From positions 4,387-68,386 of the forward strand of contig JADLAV010000084.1 of NCBI GenBank assembly GCA_020848075.1: 64,000 nucleotides of DNA, given 5' to 3'. The notes under the pieces were generated by a model. It was not told where the DNA came from, did not search any database, and worked only from the letters and a program-made list of their open reading frames with translations. Positions 2,593-45,356 of the stretch are shown one piece after another. Source of the stretch: Burkholderiales bacterium (GTDB taxonomy: Bacteria; Pseudomonadota; Gammaproteobacteria; Burkholderiales; SG8-39). Each line of letters begins with the position of its first letter. The first letter of the stretch is position 1. Both the position numbers and the translations under genes were made by a program.

Positions 2593-2611
2593 GAGGTTCG
2601 TCCAGGCTTTC

Positions 2612-3760
2612 TTACGTCACGCGTTTCCCCTGCAGCATCCCGCTCAGGATGTGGTCGAGCGCCGTCTTTGCGGCGGGCCGGGCCTCGGCCGGCGGCTTGG
2701 TGCTCCACACCGTTTCCGGCCGCGCCTGCAGGATGAAGATGTTGCCGCCGGCGGGCAGGTCCTTGTCGACCGCCCACTCGATGTCCATCGGCCGGCCGTA
2801 ATGGCGCTCGATCGCCTTGCCCATGCGCGCGAGCTCGATCACCTCCTCGTCGATGATCGACTGGACGGTCTGGCGCTCGAACGGCACCTCCTGCGCCCGC
2901 GACTTCTGGGCGCTGAAATCGACCGTGTAGCAGATCTCCTTGCGCGAGATGGTGCGGCCGATGATGTCGAGCGACACCTTGTTCACCACGAAGTGATCGG
3001 GCGTGACCTCGCCGGACACCACCGACTCGCCGAATCCGAAATTCGAGTCGAGCGCGATCACCGAGCGGTCGCCGTTGGCCGGGTCGAGGGTGAACATGAC
3101 ACCCGCGGCGAAGGAGTTCGCCATCTTCTGCACGCCGACGCTGATCGCCACCGCGTCGTGCGCGAAGCCCATCTTCGCGCGGTAGGCGATCGCCCGCGCG
3201 GTGAAAAGGCTCCCCATGCAGCGGCGCGCATGCGTGAGCACGTCGTCGATGCCGCGGATCCAGAGATAGGTGTCCTGCTGCCCGGCGAAGCTCGCGCCTG
3301 GCAGATCCTCGGCGGTGGCGCTCGAGCGCACCGCCACGGGTGTGGCCGGCAGGCAGCAGCGCACGCCGAGCTTGCGGTAGAACTCCGCGACCGAGTCCTC
3401 GAGCGCCATCGAGAACGGCGTCGCCTCGACGAGGGCTCGAAGCTCGCGGCTGCGCGCCTCCAGCGCATCCATGTCGCGGGCATCGATGCCGGTCGTGAGC
3501 TCGCGGATCGCGTCTGCGATGCCGCCTTCGCGCACGAAGCGCCGGTACGCCGCAGTCGTCAGTGCGAAGCCCGGGGGCACGCGCACGCCGGCGTTGATGA
3601 GCTCGCCGAGGGAGGCGCACTTGCCGCCCACGACGGCAACGGCGCCCTTGTCTACCTCCTGGAACCAGAGGAGCTCGGCTGCGCCGTCGGGCGCGGCCTC
3701 GGCCGTGGTCCCCGGAAGGGTTCCAGCCATGAAGCGTTCCATGTCGCTTGGGTCGCGCAC
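2612..3760 (-). CDS. PEP/pyruvate-binding (ATP-grasp) protein, phenylphosphate synthase beta-subunit-like (PpsB-like)
   Basis: 382-aa ORF with ...VVGGKCASLGELINAGVRVPPGFALTTAAY...SSATAEDLPGASFAGQQDTYL..., the N-terminal nucleotide-binding module of the PEP synthase/PPDK family. The GTG start at 3760 is uncertain; in-frame ATGs at 3742 and 3733 are alternatives. Confidence 0.8.
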   Translation of the reverse strand: MRDPSDMERFMAGTLPGTTAEAAPDGAAELLWFQEVDKGAVAVVGGKCASLGELINAGVRVPPGFALTTAAYRRFVREGGIADAIRELTTGIDARDMDALEARSRELRALVEATPFSMALEDSVAEFYRKLGVRCCLPATPVAVRSSATAEDLPGASFAGQQDTYLWIRGIDDVLTHARRCMGSLFTARAIAYRAKMGFAHDAVAISVGVQKMANSFAAGVMFTLDPANGDRSVIALDSNFGFGESVVSGEVTPDHFVVNKVSLDIIGRTISRKEICYTVDFSAQKSRAQEVPFERQTVQSIIDEEVIELARMGKAIERHYGRPMDIEWAVDKDLPAGGNIFILQARPETVWSTKPPAEARPAAKTALDHILSGMLQGKRVT

Positions 3761-8731: not shown

Positions 8732-8904
8732 CACCACCCCGGCCGCTTCGCGGCCACCCCTCCTCTCCGAGGCGGGGAAGACATCCTTTATCCCCTCCTT
8801 TTCAAGGGGTGCCGGGCGAAGCCCGGCGGGGTGGTTCGCGCGGACCGCTGGCGAAGCCGGCGGAGTGGTTCGCGCGGAGCGCTGGCGAGGCCGGCGGGGT
8901 GGTT
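8732..8904. repeat. GC-rich double-hairpin repeat cluster (inverted pair plus two extra 34-bp tandem units)
   Basis: CACCACCCCGGCCGCTTCGCGGCCACCCCTCCT... is followed by the opposite-orientation CCCCTCCTTTTCAAGGGGTGCCGGGCGAAGCCCGGCGGGGTGGTT. Tandem units follow at 8837-8870 and 8871-8904 (CGCGCGGAsCGCTGGCGArGCCGGCGGrGTGGTT). Confidence 0.65.
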
Positions 8905-10186: not shown

Positions 10187-10292
10187 AACCACTCCGCCGC
10201 TCTCGGCGGCAGCCGTCCTTGAAAAGGCGGGGATCGGTTTTCTCCCCTCCTCCTTGAGGAGGGGTGGGACGCGAAGCGTGACGGGGTGGTGG
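10187..10292. repeat. GC-rich double-hairpin repeat, inverted pair (same family as 8732-8904)
   Basis: AACCACTCCGCCGCTCTCGGCGGCAGCCGTCCTTGAAAAGGCGGGGA followed by TCCCCTCCTCCTTGAGGAGGGGTGGGACGCGAAGCGTGACGGGGTGGTG. Confidence 0.6.
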
Positions 10293-10317: not shown

Positions 10318-10968
10318 ATGGTGAAGCTCTGCGGAATCCGGATCAGCAACTACCACAACAAAGTGCGCCTCGCGGCGCTCGAGAAGGGCATCGCGTTCGA
10401 GGAGAACGACCAGTGCGCGCCCTCGCGCGACGAGGCTCACCTCGAACGCTCGGCGATGGGGAAGGTTCCCTACCTCGAGGTGAACGGCGAGACTCTCACC
10501 GAGTCGCAGGCGATCTGCGAGTATCTCGAGGAGGCGTATCCCGAGAAGCCGCTCTATCCGCGGGATCCGTGGCAGCGCGCCAAGGTGCGTGAGCTGATCA
10601 GCTACCTCGAGCTGCACGTGGAGCTCGTCTCCCGCCGGCTGCACAAGCAGGCGTTCTACGGCGGGGCGGTTTCGGACGAATCGAAGGCGCAGGTCGAGCG
10701 CGAGCTCACCCGGGGGCTCAAGGCGCTCGGCCGGCTGGCGAAATTCGCGCCGATGCTGGCCGGACCGGAGCTCACGCTCGCCGACGTCTGCGCCTTCGTT
10801 CATCTGCCTCTGGTAGCCACCGTGACGCGGCTCGTGCTCGGCCGCGACCTGGTCGAAGAACTGCTCCCGCAGGCGAAGCCGTATCTCAAGGCGCTCGGCG
10901 AGCGGCCGGCATTCCAGCGGGTCGCCGCCGATCGCAAGGCCGCCACGGACGCGCGCCGCAAGAAGTAG
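10318..10968 (+). CDS. Glutathione S-transferase family protein
   Basis: 216 aa with a thioredoxin-like N-domain (KLCGIRISNYHNKVRLAALEKGI...GKVPYLEVNGETLTESQAICEYL) and a helical C-domain. Confidence 0.85.
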   Translation: MVKLCGIRISNYHNKVRLAALEKGIAFEENDQCAPSRDEAHLERSAMGKVPYLEVNGETLTESQAICEYLEEAYPEKPLYPRDPWQRAKVRELISYLELHVELVSRRLHKQAFYGGAVSDESKAQVERELTRGLKALGRLAKFAPMLAGPELTLADVCAFVHLPLVATVTRLVLGRDLVEELLPQAKPYLKALGERPAFQRVAADRKAATDARRKK

Positions 10969-13931: not shown

Positions 13932-15581
13932 ATGGATGCGAGAGCCAAACGAACCAAGCTGTCGTCCAGAGAAGCCGACCGACGGCCGATCCAGGACCTG
14001 CGCGAGTGGCTCGCGCGCGTGGACGCCATGGGTGAGCTCGTCCGCGTCCGCGAGCCGGTCGACCGCGATGAGGAGATGAGCGCCATCAGCTACCTCGTCG
14101 CCAAGCAGCATCCTTCGCCCGCCGTGCTGTTCGAGCGCGCGCGCGGGTTCGAAAAGAGCCCGATCGGCGCGCAACTGCTGTGGAACATTCTCGGCCCGAG
14201 CACCCGCAGGATCGCGCTCACGCTCGAGGAGCCGCCGGACACGCCCACGATCGAGCTCATCCGGCGCGTGAAAGACAAGCTCAAGCGGCGCATCGTGCCG
14301 CGCGAAGTGTCGCGCGCGAAGGCGCCCGTCTACGAGAATACGCTCACCGGGCGCAAGATCGATCTCGACGCGCTGCCGATTCCGCGCCACTGGCCGCGCG
14401 ATGGCGGCCGCTACGCGGGCACGGGCGATGCGGTGATCACGCGCGACCCCGACAGCGGCTACCTGAACGTCGGCACCTATCGGATGATGGTGCAGGGGAA
14501 GGCCGAGGCGGGCCTCTATCTCTCCCCGGGCAAGGACGCGCGCCTGCACATCACGCGTGCGTGGCAGCAGGGCAAGGCCATCGAGGTTGCGGCGGCCTGG
14601 GGCATCGATCCGATCTTCATGCTGGTCGGGTCGCAGACTTTCCCGAAGAACGTCTCGGAGTACGAATACGCGGGTGGCATCAAGGGCGAGCCGATTCCGG
14701 TCGTCCGCGGCGCCACTACGGACCTCCTGATTCCGGCGAACGCCGAGTTCGTCGTCGAAGGCATCATCCGGCCGAACTCGGTGAAATCCGAAGGACCCTT
14801 CGGCGAGTTCCCGGGCTACTACGGGCGGCCGGAGGCGGGCTGCCCGCTGGTGGAGATCACCGCCGTGCACCATCGCACGAAGCCCATCCTGACCAACGCG
14901 TTGATGGCGGATTACCCGTCGTGCGAACAGAGCGGGTTCTTCTCGATCATCCGCTCGGCCAAGATCTGGGACGACCTCGACAAGCTCGGCATCCCAGGCA
15001 TCTGCGGCGTCTACTCGCACCCGGCTGCCGCCGGCGGCTTCGGGATGACGATCATCAGCATCGAGCAGCGTCATGCGGGCCACGCGGCGCAGGCGCTCGC
15101 GCTCGCCGCGCAGGTCCCGGGCGGTGCCTACTACACCAAGTGGATCGTCGCGGTGGACGAGGATGTCGATCCCACCGACATGGACCAGGTGATCTGGGCG
15201 ATGGCGAGCCGCTGCAACCCGATCGACGACATCGACATCCTGCGCAACACCTGGAGCACCTGGCTCGATCCGACGCAGAACCCGCCGGAGAAGCGGCCCT
15301 ACGGCTCCAAGGCGCTGATCAACGCCTGCAAGGAGCATCGCCACCTGCCGGTCTTCTCGAAGCGCACCACGCTGCGCAAGCCCGTGTACGACAAGGTCGC
15401 GCAGCGCTGGAAGACGCTCGGGCTGCCGGGCGCGATTCCGCCCGTGCGCGCGTTCGAGGCCGAGGCCAAGGTCGCTTATCATGAGGTCGGCGGCTTCGAG
15501 CCCGGGCAGCAGCCCGGCGAGAAGAAGAAGGACAAGGGCCAGGGGAAAGACCAGCCCGCGGCGCGGGGCGCCAAATCGTGA
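13932..15581 (+). CDS. UbiD-family (de)carboxylase, paralogue 1 of a tandem pair
   Basis: NVGTYR, VSEYEYAGG and EGPFGEFPGYYGRP motifs. The ATG at 13932 is preferred to the TTG at 13887. C-terminal Lys/Gly/Gln-rich tail (GEKKKDKGQGKDQ). Confidence 0.9.
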   Translation: MDARAKRTKLSSREADRRPIQDLREWLARVDAMGELVRVREPVDRDEEMSAISYLVAKQHPSPAVLFERARGFEKSPIGAQLLWNILGPSTRRIALTLEEPPDTPTIELIRRVKDKLKRRIVPREVSRAKAPVYENTLTGRKIDLDALPIPRHWPRDGGRYAGTGDAVITRDPDSGYLNVGTYRMMVQGKAEAGLYLSPGKDARLHITRAWQQGKAIEVAAAWGIDPIFMLVGSQTFPKNVSEYEYAGGIKGEPIPVVRGATTDLLIPANAEFVVEGIIRPNSVKSEGPFGEFPGYYGRPEAGCPLVEITAVHHRTKPILTNALMADYPSCEQSGFFSIIRSAKIWDDLDKLGIPGICGVYSHPAAAGGFGMTIISIEQRHAGHAAQALALAAQVPGGAYYTKWIVAVDEDVDPTDMDQVIWAMASRCNPIDDIDILRNTWSTWLDPTQNPPEKRPYGSKALINACKEHRHLPVFSKRTTLRKPVYDKVAQRWKTLGLPGAIPPVRAFEAEAKVAYHEVGGFEPGQQPGEKKKDKGQGKDQPAARGAKS

Positions 15582-15619: not shown

Positions 15620-17125
15620 ATGGACCGCAGCAGGATGATCGGTATCAGGAGCCTCGGCGACTGGCTGCAGCTGGTCGAGTCGATCGGCGAGCTGAAGCGC
15701 ATCAAGGCGAGCGTCGACTGGGATCTCGAGATGAGCACCATCACGTACATGGCCGGCAAGACCGTCGGCGGTCCGGCCCTCCTCTTCGAGAACATCAAGG
15801 ACCACCCGGGCGGAAGACTCCTCTTCAATCCGTTCGGCAGCAGCCTGAACCGCGTTGCGATCTCGATCCGCGAGGAACCGACCAAGGATTCGCTCGGCCT
15901 CGTGCGCAGCCTGAGCGAGAAGATGAAGAGGCGCGTGGCGCCGGTGGTCGTGGATCCGAAGGCCGCGGAGGTGAACCAGAACATCGAGACCGGCGACAAG
16001 GTCGACGTCACGCGGTTTCCCGCGCCGAAGATGTGGCCCCTCGACGGCGGCCGCTATCTCGGCACCGCCGATGCGGTCATCACCATGAATCCCGAGGACG
16101 GCCGCACCAATCTCGGCACCTACCGGCAGATGGTCCAGGGGCCGAAGCAGGTCGGCTTCTACTCCTCGCCCGGCAAGGACGCCACGCTCGACAAGCAGCG
16201 CTGGTGGGATCGCGGCCAGCCGGCGCCGGTCGCCGCGGTGTACGGCCTCGAGCCGCTCCTTTTCCTCGCCTCGTCGACGTCGTTTCCCAAGGACGTCTCC
16301 GAATACGAGTTCGCCGGCGGCATCAATGGCGCGCCGATCGAGGTGTTCCGGAGCGACATCACCCAGCTCGAGCTCCCCGCGCACGCCGAGATCATCATCG
16401 AGGGCTTCTGTCACCCGGGCAAGACCGCGCCCGAGGGCCCGTTCGGCGAGTTCACCGGGTACTACGGCCGCCCGGGCGGCGCGACGCCTTACATCGACAT
16501 CAAGGCAATCCGCTATCGCAACGATCCGATCGTCACCAGCGCGCTCATGGCCGACGGCTGGTCGAACGAGTGCGGCCTGATGTGGGGGATGGCGAAGGCC
16601 GCCAAGGTGTGGACCGATCTCAACGCGATGGGCATTCCTGGGATCCGGGGCGTCTGGTCGCCGCCCGAGGCCGCGGGCTGGGGCATGACGGTCGTGTCGA
16701 TCAAGCAGCAGTACGCCGGCCACGCCGCGCAGGTGGGCGCGCTTGCCGCGCAGTGCATGGGCGGTGCGTATTTCACCAAGTACATCGTGGTGGTGGACGA
16801 CGACGTCGATCCGACCGATCTCGGCGACGTGGCGTGGGCGATGGTCACGCGCTCGCGGCCGGCGCAGTCGATCGACATCCTGCGCGAGACCTGGAGCACC
16901 TACCTCGATCCGAGCCAGAACCCGCCCGAGATCCGGCCGTGGGGCTCCAAGTGCATCATCAACGCCTGCAAGGAGTACAAGCACATCAAGTCGTTCGCGC
17001 GCCGCAGCCAGTTGAAGCGCGAAGTGTACGAATCGGTCTGCGCGCGCTGGAGTGAGCTCGGCCTCGACGGCGAGCCGCCCCGCATCACCCACTTCGAGGA
17101 CTTCGAGGGCCAGGTCACCAGCTGA
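15620..17125 (+). CDS. UbiD-family (de)carboxylase, paralogue 2 of a tandem pair
   Basis: NLGTYR, VSEYEFAGG and EGPFGEFTGYYGRP motifs. Strong GAAGGAGG RBS. Clearly homologous along its full length to the preceding gene. Confidence 0.9.
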   Translation: MDRSRMIGIRSLGDWLQLVESIGELKRIKASVDWDLEMSTITYMAGKTVGGPALLFENIKDHPGGRLLFNPFGSSLNRVAISIREEPTKDSLGLVRSLSEKMKRRVAPVVVDPKAAEVNQNIETGDKVDVTRFPAPKMWPLDGGRYLGTADAVITMNPEDGRTNLGTYRQMVQGPKQVGFYSSPGKDATLDKQRWWDRGQPAPVAAVYGLEPLLFLASSTSFPKDVSEYEFAGGINGAPIEVFRSDITQLELPAHAEIIIEGFCHPGKTAPEGPFGEFTGYYGRPGGATPYIDIKAIRYRNDPIVTSALMADGWSNECGLMWGMAKAAKVWTDLNAMGIPGIRGVWSPPEAAGWGMTVVSIKQQYAGHAAQVGALAAQCMGGAYFTKYIVVVDDDVDPTDLGDVAWAMVTRSRPAQSIDILRETWSTYLDPSQNPPEIRPWGSKCIINACKEYKHIKSFARRSQLKREVYESVCARWSELGLDGEPPRITHFEDFEGQVTS

Positions 17126-24896: not shown

Positions 24897-24923
24897 CTCA
24901 GGCTCCGGGTTGGCAGAATCTCA

Positions 24924-25036
24924 TCCCCTCCTTCTCAAGGAGGGGTGCCGGCGAAGCCGGCGGGGTGGTTGCAGCTTCGACCAAGGCACGGCACCACCCC
25001 GGCGCTGCGCGCCACCCCTCCTCGGAGAGGAGGGGA
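24924..25036. repeat. GC-rich double-hairpin repeat, inverted pair, in the gcvT-gcvH gap
   Basis: CCCCTCCTTCTCAAGGAGGGGTGCCGGCGAAGCCGGCGGGGTGGTT ... CACCACCCCGGCGCTGCGCGCCACCCCTCCTCGGAGAGGAGGGG. Confidence 0.65.
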
Positions 25037-25050
25037 TCGAAAGCGGCGGT

Positions 25051-26167: not shown

Positions 26168-26206
26168 AAACGAAAAGGAGCGATGCCGGTCTCCCGGAAT
26201 CGCCCC
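26168..26206 (-). terminator. Riboswitch expression-platform terminator hairpin plus U-tract
   Basis: RNA sense: GGGGCGAT-TCCGGGAGACCGGC-ATCGCTCC followed by UUUUCGUUU. The 5' arm overlaps the 3' end of aptamer 2. Confidence 0.5.
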
Positions 26207-26418
26207 TCTGTCCTTTGACCTGAGAGTTTACGGCGCGCGCAGCCGGTCGGCTCCGTGCGCCGCGTGCCCCTTCGGTGGGCGAGCCCCGGGCTCGCCGCTC
26301 TCCAGAGTTGCGGGGCGATCACGCCGGCCCCGGTCGCGGAGTTCCTGTGCCTGAGCGATTGCGGGCGCTTGCGCCTTCGGCGGCGGCCGTGGAACGCCTC
26401 GGCCGCGCTCTTCCCCGT
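26200..26418 (-). ncRNA. Tandem glycine riboswitch (two aptamers)
   Basis: Reverse complement reads GGGGAAGAGCG...CGCCGAAGGCGCAAGCG...CUCAGGCACAGGAAC (aptamer 1) then CUCUGGAGAGCGG...CCCACCGAAGGGGCA...ACUCUCAGGUCAAAGGACAGAGGGG (aptamer 2). It sits directly upstream of gcvT. Confidence 0.85.
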
Positions 26419-26475
26419 GACCACGCGAGTCTAGCACCGTGAGGACGAACGGGGCAGGCCGCCCGGCGCGGGAAC

Positions 26476-42402: not shown

Positions 42403-45141
42403 CTACGCCATGGCTTTCGTCACCACTTCGGTGGTGTCCTTCGACAGCCCCTCGGTGTCGCGCACGCGCTCGAGCGCGGCGCGGGCATGCGCCTGCCGGC
42501 CGGCGTCGAATTTTCTCCAGCGATCGAATGCGCGCGCCATGCGGGCGGCGACCTGCGGGTTGAGCCGGTCGAGCGTGACCACCTGGTCGGCGAGGAACGC
42601 GTAGCCGGCCCCGTCCGCGGCGTGAAAGCGCACGTGGTTCGCCAGCGTGAAGCCACCGATCAGCGCATAGACTTTGTTCGGGTTCTTGAGCGAAAACGCA
42701 GGATGCGCAAGGAGGCGTCGCACTTCGGCGAGCGTGGCGGGCAGGCGGGAGGTCGCCTGCACGCGCAGCCACTTGTCCACGACGAGCGGCTCGCCCTGCC
42801 AGCGCGCGTAGAACGCATCGAGCGCTCCGGGCCGCTCGGGGCAGTCGCAGTTCGCCAGGATGCCGAGCGCGGCGATGCCGTCGGTCATGTTGCCGGCACG
42901 CTCGAGCTGCGTCACGGCGGTGGCACGCACCTCGTCGTCGGCGAGCTCCATCAGATAGGCGAGGCACAGATTGCGCAGCGCGCGCTTGCCGGCGCTCGCC
43001 GCGTCCGGGCTGTAGGGCCCGTGCACGGCGTGTGTCCGGTAGGCGGCAACGAGCTCCGGCCGCATGGCCCGCGCGAGATGCGCCGCGAGCGCGTTGCGCA
43101 CGGCGTGGATCGCGTCGGGATCGACGACGTCCATCTGCTCGGCGAGATGGATCTCCGAGGGCAGCGTGAGCGCCTCGGCCGCGAACGCCGGGTCCCGCGG
43201 CGCGTCGGCGAGCACGCGCGCGAACGCCGACACGAACGCGTCCGGAACGTCGAGCGCGCGCCCGGCGCGATGCGCCGCGACGCCCTGCATCAGCAGCCCC
43301 GTCGCGAGGCGCTGGCCCGCTTCCCAGCGATTGAACGGGTCCGCGTCGTGCGCCATCAGGTGCGCGAGCGCGGCGTCGCTGTAGCCGTGCTTCAGGATCA
43401 CCGGTGCCGAGAAGCCGCGGAGCAGCGACGGCACCGGCGCGGCCGGCACGTTCACGAAGGTGAAGCGCTCGGTTTCGCCCTTCACCGAGAGCACGCGCGT
43501 GGTTCCCGCAGCCCGCGTTTCCCCCTCGATCTGGAGCGGGGCGTCGCGCCCATCCGGGCCGACCAGACCCAGCGCCACCGGGATGTGGAACGGCAGCTTC
43601 GTCGCCTGTCCGGGCGTCGGCGGGCAGTGCTGCCTAAACGAGAGCGTATAGCGCTGGGCGGCTGCGTCGTAGGCGCCCTCGGCTTCCAGCACCGGCGTGC
43701 CCGCCTGGTCGTACCACCGCTTGAACTGGCCGAGGTCGATGCCGGAGGCGTCCGCCATCGCCTGCACGAAGTCGTCGCAGGTCACCGCCTGCCCGTCGTG
43801 CCGCTGGAAGTAGAGATCCATGCCGCGCCGGAACGCGTCTTTGCCGAGGAGCGTGTGGATCATGCGCACCACCTCGGCCCCCTTCTCGTACACCGTGGCA
43901 GTGTAGAAGTTCGTCACCTCGATGTACGACTGCGGGCGCACCGGGTGCGCCATCGGCCCCGCGTCCTCCGGAAACTGCGCGAGCCGGAGCCCGCGCACCT
44001 CGCGGATCCGCTGCACCGGTCGCGAGTACATGTCCGCGCCGAACTCCTGGTCGCGGAATACGGTGAGCCCCTCCTTGAGCGAGAGCTGGAACCAGTCGCG
44101 GCAGGTGACGCGGTTGCCGGTCCAGTTGTGGAAGTACTCGTGCGCGACCACGCGGTCGATATTCTGGTAGTCGAGATCGGTCGCGATATCCGGCCGCGCG
44201 AGCACGTACTTGGTGTTGAAGATGTTGAGCCCCTTGTTCTCCATCGCGCCCATGTTGAAGTCGCCGACCGCGACGATCATGTAGCGGTCGAGGTCGAGCT
44301 CGAGCCCGAACACCTCCTCGTCCCACTTCATCGCGCGCTTGAGCGCGCTCATCGCGAAGCGCGCTTCCTCGAGCTTGCCGGGCTCGACGTAGATTGCGAG
44401 CTGCGCGCGCTTGCCCGACATGGTGACGAAGTCCTCCTCGAGGCGATCGAGCCTTGCGGCGACCGCGGCGAAGAGGTACGAAGGTTTCGGGAACGGATCC
44501 TCCCACCGCACCCAGTGCCGGACACCCCCCTCCTTTTCAAGGAGGGGTGGCCGCGAAGCGGCCGGGGTGGTTTCGTCGTCTCCTTTGGAAGGAGGGGTGC
44601 CCTGCGCAGCAGGCCGGGGTGGTTCGAATCCGCACGCCACCCGATTCCCGTTCGAGAGTAGGTGCGGGCAGCGCTCGCGATCGGCACGGATGGTGCACGT
44701 GTAGCGCGCCATGACGTCCGGCCGGTCGATGAAGTACGTGATGCGCCGGAAGCCCTGCGCCTCCGACTGCGTGAAGTAGCCGTCCTTGGAGGCGTAGAGC
44801 CCCATCAGCTTCGTGTTCTTCTGCGGCTCGATGCGCACTGCGGTGGCGAGGCGGAACGCGTCGGGCACCGAGGTGATCGTGAGGCGCTCCGCGTCGACGG
44901 CGTACTCGGGCGGCTCGAGCCGCCGCCCGTCGAGCGCTACCGAGACGAGGGTAAGCTCGTCACCGTCCAGCACGAGCGGCGCCCGCGCGTCGCGCGCAGC
45001 CGGGTTGCGGCGAACCGTGAGCGTCGCGCGGACGAGGGCATGGTCGTCGTGGAGCGCGATGTCGAGCTCGACCGCCGGGATCAGGAACGCGGGCGGCGCG
45101 TAGTCCTTGAGGAGAATTGCAGTCGGTGCCGGGTCGCGCAC
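42403..45141 (-). CDS. pepN: Aminopeptidase N (M1 family)
   Basis: GAMENKG and HEYFHNWTGNRVTCRDWFQLSLKEGLTVF (HEXXH-18-E). A GTG start at 45141 with an AAGGAG RBS fits the conserved N-terminus (..ILLKDYAPPAF). Confidence 0.9.
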   Translation of the reverse strand: MRDPAPTAILLKDYAPPAFLIPAVELDIALHDDHALVRATLTVRRNPAARDARAPLVLDGDELTLVSVALDGRRLEPPEYAVDAERLTITSVPDAFRLATAVRIEPQKNTKLMGLYASKDGYFTQSEAQGFRRITYFIDRPDVMARYTCTIRADRERCPHLLSNGNRVACGFEPPRPAAQGTPPSKGDDETTPAASRPPLLEKEGGVRHWVRWEDPFPKPSYLFAAVAARLDRLEEDFVTMSGKRAQLAIYVEPGKLEEARFAMSALKRAMKWDEEVFGLELDLDRYMIVAVGDFNMGAMENKGLNIFNTKYVLARPDIATDLDYQNIDRVVAHEYFHNWTGNRVTCRDWFQLSLKEGLTVFRDQEFGADMYSRPVQRIREVRGLRLAQFPEDAGPMAHPVRPQSYIEVTNFYTATVYEKGAEVVRMIHTLLGKDAFRRGMDLYFQRHDGQAVTCDDFVQAMADASGIDLGQFKRWYDQAGTPVLEAEGAYDAAAQRYTLSFRQHCPPTPGQATKLPFHIPVALGLVGPDGRDAPLQIEGETRAAGTTRVLSVKGETERFTFVNVPAAPVPSLLRGFSAPVILKHGYSDAALAHLMAHDADPFNRWEAGQRLATGLLMQGVAAHRAGRALDVPDAFVSAFARVLADAPRDPAFAAEALTLPSEIHLAEQMDVVDPDAIHAVRNALAAHLARAMRPELVAAYRTHAVHGPYSPDAASAGKRALRNLCLAYLMELADDEVRATAVTQLERAGNMTDGIAALGILANCDCPERPGALDAFYARWQGEPLVVDKWLRVQATSRLPATLAEVRRLLAHPAFSLKNPNKVYALIGGFTLANHVRFHAADGAGYAFLADQVVTLDRLNPQVAARMARAFDRWRKFDAGRQAHARAALERVRDTEGLSKDTTEVVTKAMA
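44525..44624. repeat. Two tandem double-hairpin repeat units inserted in frame inside pepN
   Basis: CCCCCCTCCTTTTCAAGGAGGGGTGGCCGCGAAGCGGCCGGGGTGGTT, then TCGTCG, then TCTCCTTTGGAAGGAGGGGTGCCCTGCGCAGCAGGCCGGGGTGGTT. Translated within PepN as ..PPRPAAQGTPPSKGDDETTPAASRPPLLEKEGG... Confidence 0.7.
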
Positions 45142-45356
45142 GGGTCGAGGCTCCTTGGTGCCGGTGATTTCGGGGCGTCGCGGCGCGCGCCGGCCACATG
45201 ACAATGCACACCATCGGGACCGCGGCGGTTCGCTCCGCCCGAATGTTGGCACGATCTCGCGCCGCGCGGGCAGCAGCGCGCGGGACTCCGGTCCGTTGCT
45301 GCCGCAGGATGCTGCGCGTATGCTCGGCCTGACACGGTCTTACGCCTCGCACGCCA

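Follow-up and report, generated by a model that had tools for sequence, protein, structure and literature searches.

Two head-to-tail copies of a dispersed repeat of the repetitive extragenic palindromic (REP) type, or of its doublet form (REPIN), were very probably inserted stepwise and in frame into the gene for aminopeptidase N (pepN) of a Burkholderiales bacterium, where they appear to be tolerated as a disordered loop. The gene lies in the stretch of 64 kb analyzed here in full (the window). A first-pass annotation made from the sequence alone had placed two tandem units inside pepN at 44525–44624, and reading the minus strand directly confirms this placement: the interval holds two same-orientation copies, units A and B, of a 46–48 nt two-hairpin repeat (Table 1). 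The minus strand of 44521–44626 reads GAACCACCCCGGCCTGCTGCGCAGGGCACCCCTCCTTCCAAAGGAGACGACGAAACCACCCCGGCCGCTTCGCGGCCACCCCTCCTTGAAAAGGAGGGGGGTG.

The units share a general layout in which a single-stranded 5′ block (AACCACCCCG) leads into hairpin 1, followed by the block CACCCCTCCT and then by a loop and the segment AGGAGGGG that closes hairpin 2; the stem of hairpin 1 is free in sequence, yet always self-complementary. In unit A the 5′ block is followed by hairpin 1, GCCTGC-TGC-GCAGGGC, and hairpin 2, CACCCCTCCTT-CCA-AAGGAGACG, the base of which has decayed in the window, and in unit B by GGCCGC-TTC-GCGGCC and CACCCCTCCTT-GAAA-AGGAGGGG(GGTG). The two units are identical at 40 of about 50 aligned positions and start 52 nt apart. 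They are read in different frames, unit A coding for (E)PPRPAAQGTPPSKGD and unit B for TTPAASRPPLLEKEGG, and this difference, together with the 52-nt period, argues for an origin at the level of DNA rather than of protein. Folded alone as DNA, unit A reaches −10.4 kcal/mol (z = −2.3) and unit B −18.4 kcal/mol (z = −4.0), and the 141-nt pepN RNA context around the insert folds no better than shuffled sequence at a significant level (z = −1.5). Tandem Repeats Finder did not call the two-copy array in pepN. Searches against Rfam in gathering mode found no RNA family at the repeats (the window matches are two glycine riboswitch aptamers elsewhere), and E-value mode gave generic hairpin matches only, all below threshold. 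A plus-strand tRNA-Sec match at the repeat (22.8 bits) was rejected as sub-threshold; it owes much to TTCGAA from Phe-Glu codons.

The host gene looks functional, as had been proposed. Its reading frame is unbroken from stop to stop (42403–45252, minus strand), and its 912-residue product is 100% identical to the NCBI protein "MAG: aminopeptidase N [Burkholderiales bacterium]" and scores 1246.5 bits against TIGR02414 (pepN_proteo; cut-off 718.2), which places it among the proteobacterial-type M1 enzymes. The protein has the zinc-site motifs GAMEN and HEYFHNW...E, which do not vary among 52 homologues, and the core of the gene is under purifying selection (below). Within these 912 open codons the insertion adds 31, close to the roughly 30 residues first estimated. 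Structures of E. coli PepN match the window protein at E of about 1e-260, with an alignment that splits in two at the repeat, where 33 query residues (209–241 in 949-aa numbering) stand opposite only 3 E. coli residues; this confirms the short turn ascribed to the E. coli enzyme in the first-pass annotation. Mapping onto a structure model, another check proposed at the outset, was done with AlphaFold2 (52 homologues): residues 177–205 have a predicted local distance difference test score (pLDDT) below 50 and no secondary structure, and are flanked by strands 166–172 and 208–214. With disordered residues between two strands, the insert amounts to a beta-hairpin turn of the N-terminal domain that has been enlarged. 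The added segment of about 31 residues, rich in Pro and Gly (insert-derived peptide, for example, TTPAASRPPLLEK), is accordingly modeled as a disordered loop at the hairpin tip, presumably surface exposed and harmless to catalysis.

Orthologues preserve all three states of the site, empty, one-unit and two-unit. We measured loop length between the anchor motifs LLSNGN and WxDPFPKP in the best 120 homologues. Proteins P0002 and P0003, with 90% and 84% identity to the window PepN, carry the two-unit segment as in the window, and P0004 and P0005 (DNA loci L001 and L209; 79% and 78% identity) carry unit A only. Alignment with orthologues had been suggested as a check on the insertion, and syntenic relatives at 75–77% identity (P0006–P0015, and L002 at the DNA level) do show a native short turn, GELPGGRHW and similar, with no insert. 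The refuting outcome named in the first-pass annotation, the same segment in orthologues from genomes without the repeat family, was not observed. In all these orthologues pepN adjoins the NfeD and Band_7 genes, as it does in the window, and this conserved synteny argues for true orthology. The empty site of L002 reads GGC GAG CTG CCC GGC GGA CGG CAC TGG (native turn GELPGG). The one-unit site of L001 has 51 additional nucleotides and retains GAG GAA CCC GGC GGG downstream of them; at the two-unit sites (window, L207 and L003) a further net 42 nt replaces this retained remnant, for a total of 93 nt, with boundaries that come from the codon alignment and may slide by a few nucleotides. Unit B is seen only in the window, L207/L208 and L003, and the insert has been retained across a synonymous divergence (dS) of about 0.4–0.6. 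L002 lacks the pepN insert, yet a doublet of this family lies between its gcvT and gcvH genes, so absence of the insert is not explained by absence of the family. Empty, one-unit and two-unit syntenic sites argue for lineage-specific, stepwise insertion, from which we infer that unit A is the older and unit B the younger.

We propose that one 51-nt unit entered at the tip of the beta-hairpin of the N-terminal domain before the window lineage split from those of P0004 and P0005, and that the second (net +42 nt) would have arrived before the window, P0002 and P0003 lineages split, landing directly 3′ of the first, in what was left of the native turn. Transposition may have brought the units, or else copying from a repeat elsewhere that was guided by microhomology. 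Because both insertions preserve the frame and bring no stop codon, the enzyme would simply carry an extra loop, tolerated rather than used, whose amino-acid sequence would be free while its nucleotide sequence, chiefly in the family blocks, would not; constraint at the level of nucleic acid, or homogenization, probably still acts on the pepN copy.

The family is dispersed in the window, as the first-pass annotation had claimed for three intergenic sites besides pepN. The hairpin-2 core pattern CACCCCTCCTTNNNNAGGAGGGG, with up to 3 mismatches, has 11 matches at four loci (8755; 10210/10244; 24925/25013; 44527/44577), against 0.00 expected from shuffles. The contrast drawn between the loci also stands: all three intergenic loci are inverted pairs, and the pepN pair is direct. 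Single-strand folds of the doublets and of unit B are far more stable than shuffled controls (z from −3.2 to −6.7). One doublet is joined to a run of 34-nt partial units, each consisting of hairpin 1 and the GGGGTGGTT block only. Another, between gcvT and gcvH, occupies the same intergenic position in three related genomes (the window, L002 at 14855–14975 and L003 at 14568–14640, the last a decayed remnant); the conserved blocks are retained in these copies, and the hairpin-1 stems differ, each remaining complementary (GGCGC/GCGCC, GGCTGC/GCAGCC, GCCGGC/GCCGGC). Judged by sequence, this gcvT-gcvH doublet is an old copy. Together with the in-frame copies, these results support the central claim of the first-pass annotation, that a dispersed repeat resembling REPs or MITEs (miniature transposable elements bounded by inverted repeats) is tolerated in frame as a loop.

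Table 1. Coordinates in the window of the pepN gene, its repeat units and the other copies of the repeat
Feature	Position	Strand	Details
pepN coding sequence	42403..45141	-	912 aa, M1 aminopeptidase N, intact
Repeat unit A	44624 to 44577	-	AACCACCCCGGCCTGCTGCGCAGGGCACCCCTCCTTCCAAAGGAGACG
Repeat unit B	44572 to 44527	-	AACCACCCCGGCCGCTTCGCGGCCACCCCTCCTTGAAAAGGAGGGG
Net insertion relative to empty orthologous site	44521..44613	-	93 nt, 31 codons; codon alignment columns 176–206
Intergenic inverted doublet	8732..8838	unit 8732–8777 +, unit 8792–8838 -	between co-directional genes; DNA fold z = −4.2
Tandem partial units	8815..8904	+	period 34 nt, 2.6 copies, 91% matches; joined to the 8732–8838 doublet
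Intergenic inverted doublet	10187..10292	unit 10187–10232 +, unit 10244–10292 -	DNA fold z = −3.2
Intergenic inverted doublet	24923..25037	unit 24923–24970 -, unit 24993–25037 +	between gcvT and gcvH; DNA fold z = −6.7

Copies beyond the window came from an exact-pattern scan of metagenome contigs, which matched at least 120 stretches; 80 loci with GC contents of 0.34–0.69 were fetched, and these contain 85 units. Neighboring proteins assign one group of loci to Pyrinomonadaceae (Acidobacteriota) and one low-GC locus to Bacteroidales, and the conserved blocks occur in contigs of Burkholderiales, Acidobacteriota and Bacteroidales. The blocks themselves were set by the search pattern, which left hairpin 1 free, and hairpin 1 has 70 distinct sequences among the 85 units, with self-complementarity kept. 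Across 38 aligned units its covariation is 0.298, against 0.099 in shuffles (0/500 reached it) and at most 0.088 in slid controls, and two of its pairs show four pair types each. Inverted doublets are found in L002, L098 and many metagenome loci as well. Our intragenic census, based on long open reading frames (ORFs) and Pfam checks, found that at least 6 of the 85 units are read in frame as part of a gene; Pfam domains match next to each of the six and, in 5/6 cases, on both sides. The host genes encode an acyl-CoA synthetase C-terminal domain (L110), a xanthine-dehydrogenase-type FAD domain (L099), GltX (L142), a pyridine-nucleotide-disulfide oxidoreductase (L103), a DUF6580 membrane protein (L111) and a TPS-domain giant protein (L117).

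Selection acts differently on the core of pepN and on the insert. Nei-Gojobori estimates of nonsynonymous divergence (dN) and dS for the core, between the window and each orthologue, are 0.049 and 0.361 (L207), 0.098 and 0.482 (L003), and 0.137 and 0.632 (L001), so that dN/dS is 0.11–0.22, which is purifying selection. For the insert codons dN is about equal to dS (0.08–0.25; dN/dS about 1), which argues that the peptide is unconstrained. Divergence of the insert is nevertheless only 0.10–0.20 per site, against 0.26–0.40 at four-fold sites of the same gene pairs (binomial P from 3e-3 to 3e-6, computed on 51–93 nt and on non-independent pairs); the insert thus evolves 2–4 times slower than synonymous (four-fold) sites, with changes falling at every codon position. 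In the three orthologues that have two units, variable sites make up 3/56 positions in the family-conserved blocks and 11/42 elsewhere in the insert (P = 0.007). Two stem differences are compensatory. Hairpin 1 of unit A (T.A versus C.G) is CCTGC/GCAGG in the clade of the window, L001 and L209 having CCCGC/GCGGG, and hairpin 1 of unit B changes C.G to T.A, from GGCCGC/GCGGCC in the window to GGCTGC/GCAGCC in L207, at the cost of an Arg-to-Gln replacement. The translated copy keeps the nucleotide-level pattern of the family and not a codon pattern, despite being old and fixed. Constraint on the insert at the level of nucleic acid, or homogenization by other copies, is a likely if unproven cause.

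Several observations weigh against the stepwise, tolerated insertion proposed here. A neighbor-joining tree places the one-unit lineages P0004 and P0005 basal to the insert-free P0006–P0015 clade, a placement that needs either precise loss of the first unit in P0006–P0015, an error in the tree, or double gain. No target-site duplication is visible between the filled (L001) and empty (L002) pepN sites. A tblastn search with a domain from L110 resembling the REP-associated tyrosine transposases (Y1/RAYT-like) found none in the window or the other fetched loci, the range that the transposase search covers, and a single-copy RAYT elsewhere in the genome is possible. The AlphaFold2 model is of moderate quality (mean pLDDT 76), and that the loop is made as protein is a prediction from the open frame. 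Disruptive stem changes also occur (hairpin 2 of unit A in the window; unit B in L003), so upkeep of the hairpins is not strict, and the insert statistics given above rest on small numbers.

The PepN loop is a recurrent insertion site. In the alignment of 120 homologues, internal inserts of at least 11 aa occur only at consensus columns 173–176, and the remaining indels are of 8–10 residues at three sites. The loop has its native length in 75 of the 119 homologues with both anchors, 2–6 extra residues in 13, and 11–43 extra residues in 31. Insert-bearing proteins are spread over at least nine clades, with unrelated peptides, and in one clade the insert differs in nearly every member. Farther afield, in 80 homologues from Pseudomonas, Massilia, alphaproteobacteria and others, native length is almost always kept; the PepN matches listed from a genome collection, mostly at 49–70% identity, likewise have a native loop of 29 residues between the anchors outside the close relatives.

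DNA from insert-bearing loci reveals a variety of elements at this position. The repeat superfamily occupies the loop in L210 and L212, with two units each, and in L213 and L211; its orientation is sense in every case, but it sits at differing offsets from the conserved Gly codon and in differing frames (PP-, HP- and TTP- readings), and these differences argue for separate insertion events. L005 has a related two-hairpin family, L004 and L008 quite different palindromic repeats, and L007 an 18-nt palindrome. Self-BLAST of other lineages' inserts against their own short contigs recovered extra copies only in L003, and it is from their palindromic, repeat-like sequence that we infer an origin of these inserts in each genome's own repeats. 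A 93-nt insert in the loop of L006 (HPSPMSAPAPAERVAVNLINPVRSAAHAASMG, at 10514–10627 in the PepN of P0029 and present also in P0036) is not simple palindrome-like. Every two-unit PepN insert whose DNA we inspected (L210, L212, L004, L005) is a direct repeat. The first-pass remark that the units in pepN are direct thus extends to these other cases, but the explanation offered for it, selection against a strong hairpin, does no better than repeated insertion in the same orientation.

One reading of this recurrence is that the native-turn DNA (GGN GAN GAR CCN GGN GGN; native GAACCCGGCGG) is a preferred landing site, entered repeatedly and in one orientation. We consider such targeting a serious possibility, though we stop somewhat short of favoring it. 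It could proceed by strand- and sequence-specific single-strand transposition, or by microhomology-primed copying from another repeat copy. Restriction of long inserts to four alignment columns in so many homologues and clades fits targeting, as do the separate sense-oriented events in L210, L213, L212 and L211. The native GA[AG] CCC GGC GG resembles the 5′ end of the element (GAACCACCCCGGC), and unit B landed in exactly that remnant, retained as GAACC-CGGCGG 3′ of unit A in L001. A second gene, that for GltX in Pyrinomonadaceae, likewise takes its inserts at one site, and different REPs have been reported to strike Xanthomonas recB at about the same site (PMC3733652). However, the unrelated repeat families in the loops of L004, L008 and L006 fit a selection filter at least as well, homologues without an insert show no strong conservation of the native-site DNA, neither a transposase nor a cleavage motif was identified, and what looks like repeated gain could come from precise excision or from turnover within an old insert. 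The loop is either the only permissive place in PepN or a site that attracts elements, and the evidence does not decide between the two. That one loop of an 880-residue enzyme takes essentially all large insertions in many lineages offers a handle on targeting versus selective filtering.

Alternatively, the pepN copies might be retained for an RNA or DNA role of use to the host, which we think rather improbable. The element might make translation pause where the N-terminal domain ends (through its hairpins and an internal AAGGAGG), stabilize the mRNA, or serve as a binding site for a conserved factor. The slow divergence of the insert without a codon-position pattern, the avoidance of family blocks by substitutions and the compensatory stem changes all speak for such a role, as do the gcvT-gcvH doublets of the window and L002 (decayed in L003), with blocks kept and stems differing, and the conservation of the same blocks in three phyla. 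Yet close relatives (P0006–P0015) do without the insert and other lineages have quite different sequences at the site, hairpin 2 of unit A has decayed in the window, the 141-nt mRNA context folds unremarkably, the counts are small, and gene conversion from other copies could also slow divergence.

The suggestion that the loop was exapted, with the 31 residues gaining a role in substrate access, partner binding or localization, finds no support and is very unlikely: the insert does persist across dS of about 0.5 in three lineages, and many homologues have some insert there, but its dN/dS is about 1 against 0.11–0.22 for the core, its conservation is at the nucleotide level, it is predicted to be disordered, its units are read in different frames, and the inserts of other clades are unrelated peptides of 6–43 aa. 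Least credible of all is misassembly of a repeat into pepN or a decaying gene, since, although the source of the window is a metagenome-assembled genome, where repeats are a classic cause of misassembly, the two-unit insert recurs with its own substitutions in three independent assemblies from other samples (L207, L208, L003), and the unbroken frame of 912 codons, intact catalytic motifs and strong purifying selection on the core are not those of a pseudogene.

Tolerated stepwise insertion of a palindromic repeat, the reading we prefer, has precedents. In several species a minority of REPs lie wholly inside ORFs, as single units, as dimers (often) or in groups, and code for about 20–30 aa (Di Nocera et al. 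2013, PMC3733652). GTAG and CGTC REPs are short GC-rich stem-loops, mostly intergenic (between co-directional or convergent genes) and often inverted dimers; CGTC families, which are without a known dedicated transposase, are defined by an unpaired CGTC end, a stem of 8–9 bp starting with A/T pairs, a loop of 4–5 nt and a CCA tail (PMC3733652). Like intragenic REPs, the unit described here is short, GC-rich and forms stem-loops, with inverted intergenic pairs and some copies wholly inside ORFs. Unlike CGTC REPs, it is a two-hairpin composite with a conserved single-stranded 5′ block, and its hairpin-1 stems, put at 5–7 bp and, in the test against the CGTC definition, at 3–8 bp (mean 5.2), are rich in GC and of no fixed sequence. 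As the tetranucleotide that follows the 5′ block, 47/85 (55%) metagenome units have CGTC, 19 CGGC and 13 CGCC; the window has CGGC, and CCA follows the stem. Membership in the CGTC REPs is ruled out by stems that are too short, GC-rich and free in sequence, and by the second hairpin. In contrast to intragenic REP dimers, moreover, the pepN units are direct rather than inverted, and three phyla share the conserved blocks.

Rickettsia palindromic elements (RPEs) provide a second comparison. These repeats, the classic case of selfish DNA within coding sequence, lie in frame in unrelated housekeeping genes and encode a peptide judged compatible with fold and function; they are about 100–150 bp long, AT-rich and restricted to Rickettsia, with a conserved peptide in a fixed frame (PMC10969869). 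The element in pepN is likewise an in-frame palindromic repeat in a housekeeping gene, a resemblance that is functional only: judged against the published description of RPEs, the units here are of 46–51 nt, GC-rich and read in at least five frames in different hosts.

REPINs are mobilized by RAYT transposases (Bertels and Rainey 2011, PMC3116915), and the part of the REPIN literature drawn on here describes their populations as vertically inherited and lineage-specific. Several features match: the family is a dispersed, short, imperfect palindrome (four loci in the 64 kb of the window and no fewer than 120 stretches of metagenome DNA) that forms intergenic inverted doublets with a short spacer and long hairpins, one of them an orthologous doublet kept across related genomes. 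Other features do not. Among the window and fetched loci there is no RAYT flanked by repeats, hairpin-1 stems differ between copies within one genome, and the blocks cross Burkholderiales, Pyrinomonadaceae and Bacteroidales. We did not adopt the label of a RAYT-mobilized REPIN, as the only Y1 domain met, that of L110, has its own inverted repeats, unrelated to the unit. This Y1/IS200-like transposase domain (PF01797, E = 1e-9; L110 at about 2600–3400) is bounded by 30-nt inverted repeats at 2621–2650 and 3366–3395 and sits midway in a gene for an AMP-binding enzyme on a Pyrinomonadaceae-like contig, keeping its frame and bringing no stop codon; the same acyl-CoA synthetase ORF holds both the Y1 domain and one in-frame repeat unit.

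Bacterial MITEs such as ERIC, Correia and Nezha are short, non-autonomous elements bounded by inverted repeats, sometimes intragenic and forming in-frame fusions. The doublet arms here are inverted too, ending AACCACCCC...GGGGTGGTT, with no target-site duplication at L001 versus L002. Unlike typical MITEs, a single unit is much shorter, at about 50 nt, and no parent insertion sequence was found. Literature searches by sequence words returned irrelevant primer matches only, with no paper giving the unit sequence, and a search for PepN with repeat insertion found nothing. The element acts like an intragenic REP or an RPE, without assignment to any named family, and in-frame insertion of a palindromic repeat is an event already known in kind.

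The event itself is thus ordinary in kind; what makes the system worth following is that one loop is used again and again, that the conserved blocks cross phyla and come with a hairpin that covaries, and that a translated copy is conserved at the nucleotide level. It is also a clean, datable example of repeat DNA turned protein sequence. Finding the same conserved blocks in three phyla is unusual for REP-type repeats, and a bolder reading, which we put forward tentatively and regard as doubtful, would be not a lineage-bound REP but an old or horizontally moving structured two-hairpin element, spread over Burkholderiales, Acidobacteriota and Bacteroidales, that colonizes particular loops of housekeeping enzymes (the PepN beta-hairpin, a GltX linker in Pyrinomonadaceae) in frame and in one orientation, with its sequence and structure under nucleic-acid-level constraint even inside ORFs. 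If true, insertion would have to be site-directed, and the blocks AACCACCCCG and CACCCCTCCT...AGGAGGGG would serve the host or bind a factor. On the practical side, Pro/Gly-rich insert peptides such as TTPxxxxxPPLLxKEGG can mislead homology and structure pipelines.

Further observations concern the window and the fetched loci. Two tandem glycine riboswitch aptamers (RF00504; 48.7 and 50.1 bits) lie on the minus strand at 26198–26315 and 26329–26425, upstream of an apparent gcvT-gcvH-gcvP operon on the same strand. Diverged direct repeats at 15021–15335 and 16661–16975, 1640 nt apart, match over 193 and 105 nt at 73–84% identity, and inverted matches of 105–124 nt link 1597–1720 with 16342–16465 and 14718–14822; these long repeats probably reflect paralogous genes. 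A 90-nt direct repeat in three copies near the 3′ end of pepN (40436, 40928 and 42387; 61–70% identity) has no coherent translation and was set aside as probable chance. On a Bacteroidales-like contig of GC content 0.40 (L098, 4658–4795), a GC-rich inverted doublet with a 27-nt AT-rich spacer stands in AT-rich intergenic surroundings, which argues that the blocks are kept against host base composition. Finally, GltX of Pyrinomonadaceae (P0121–P0240) has 6–16 extra residues at consensus column 458 in 38/120 homologues, where the catalytic domain gives way to the anticodon-binding one; the peptides there are of several types derived from repeats (PPYEGGVAEGR, SSPTLREG..., LQKPAREQG...), and on these alignments another phylum thus has a single-site hot spot of insertion as well, the second after PepN.

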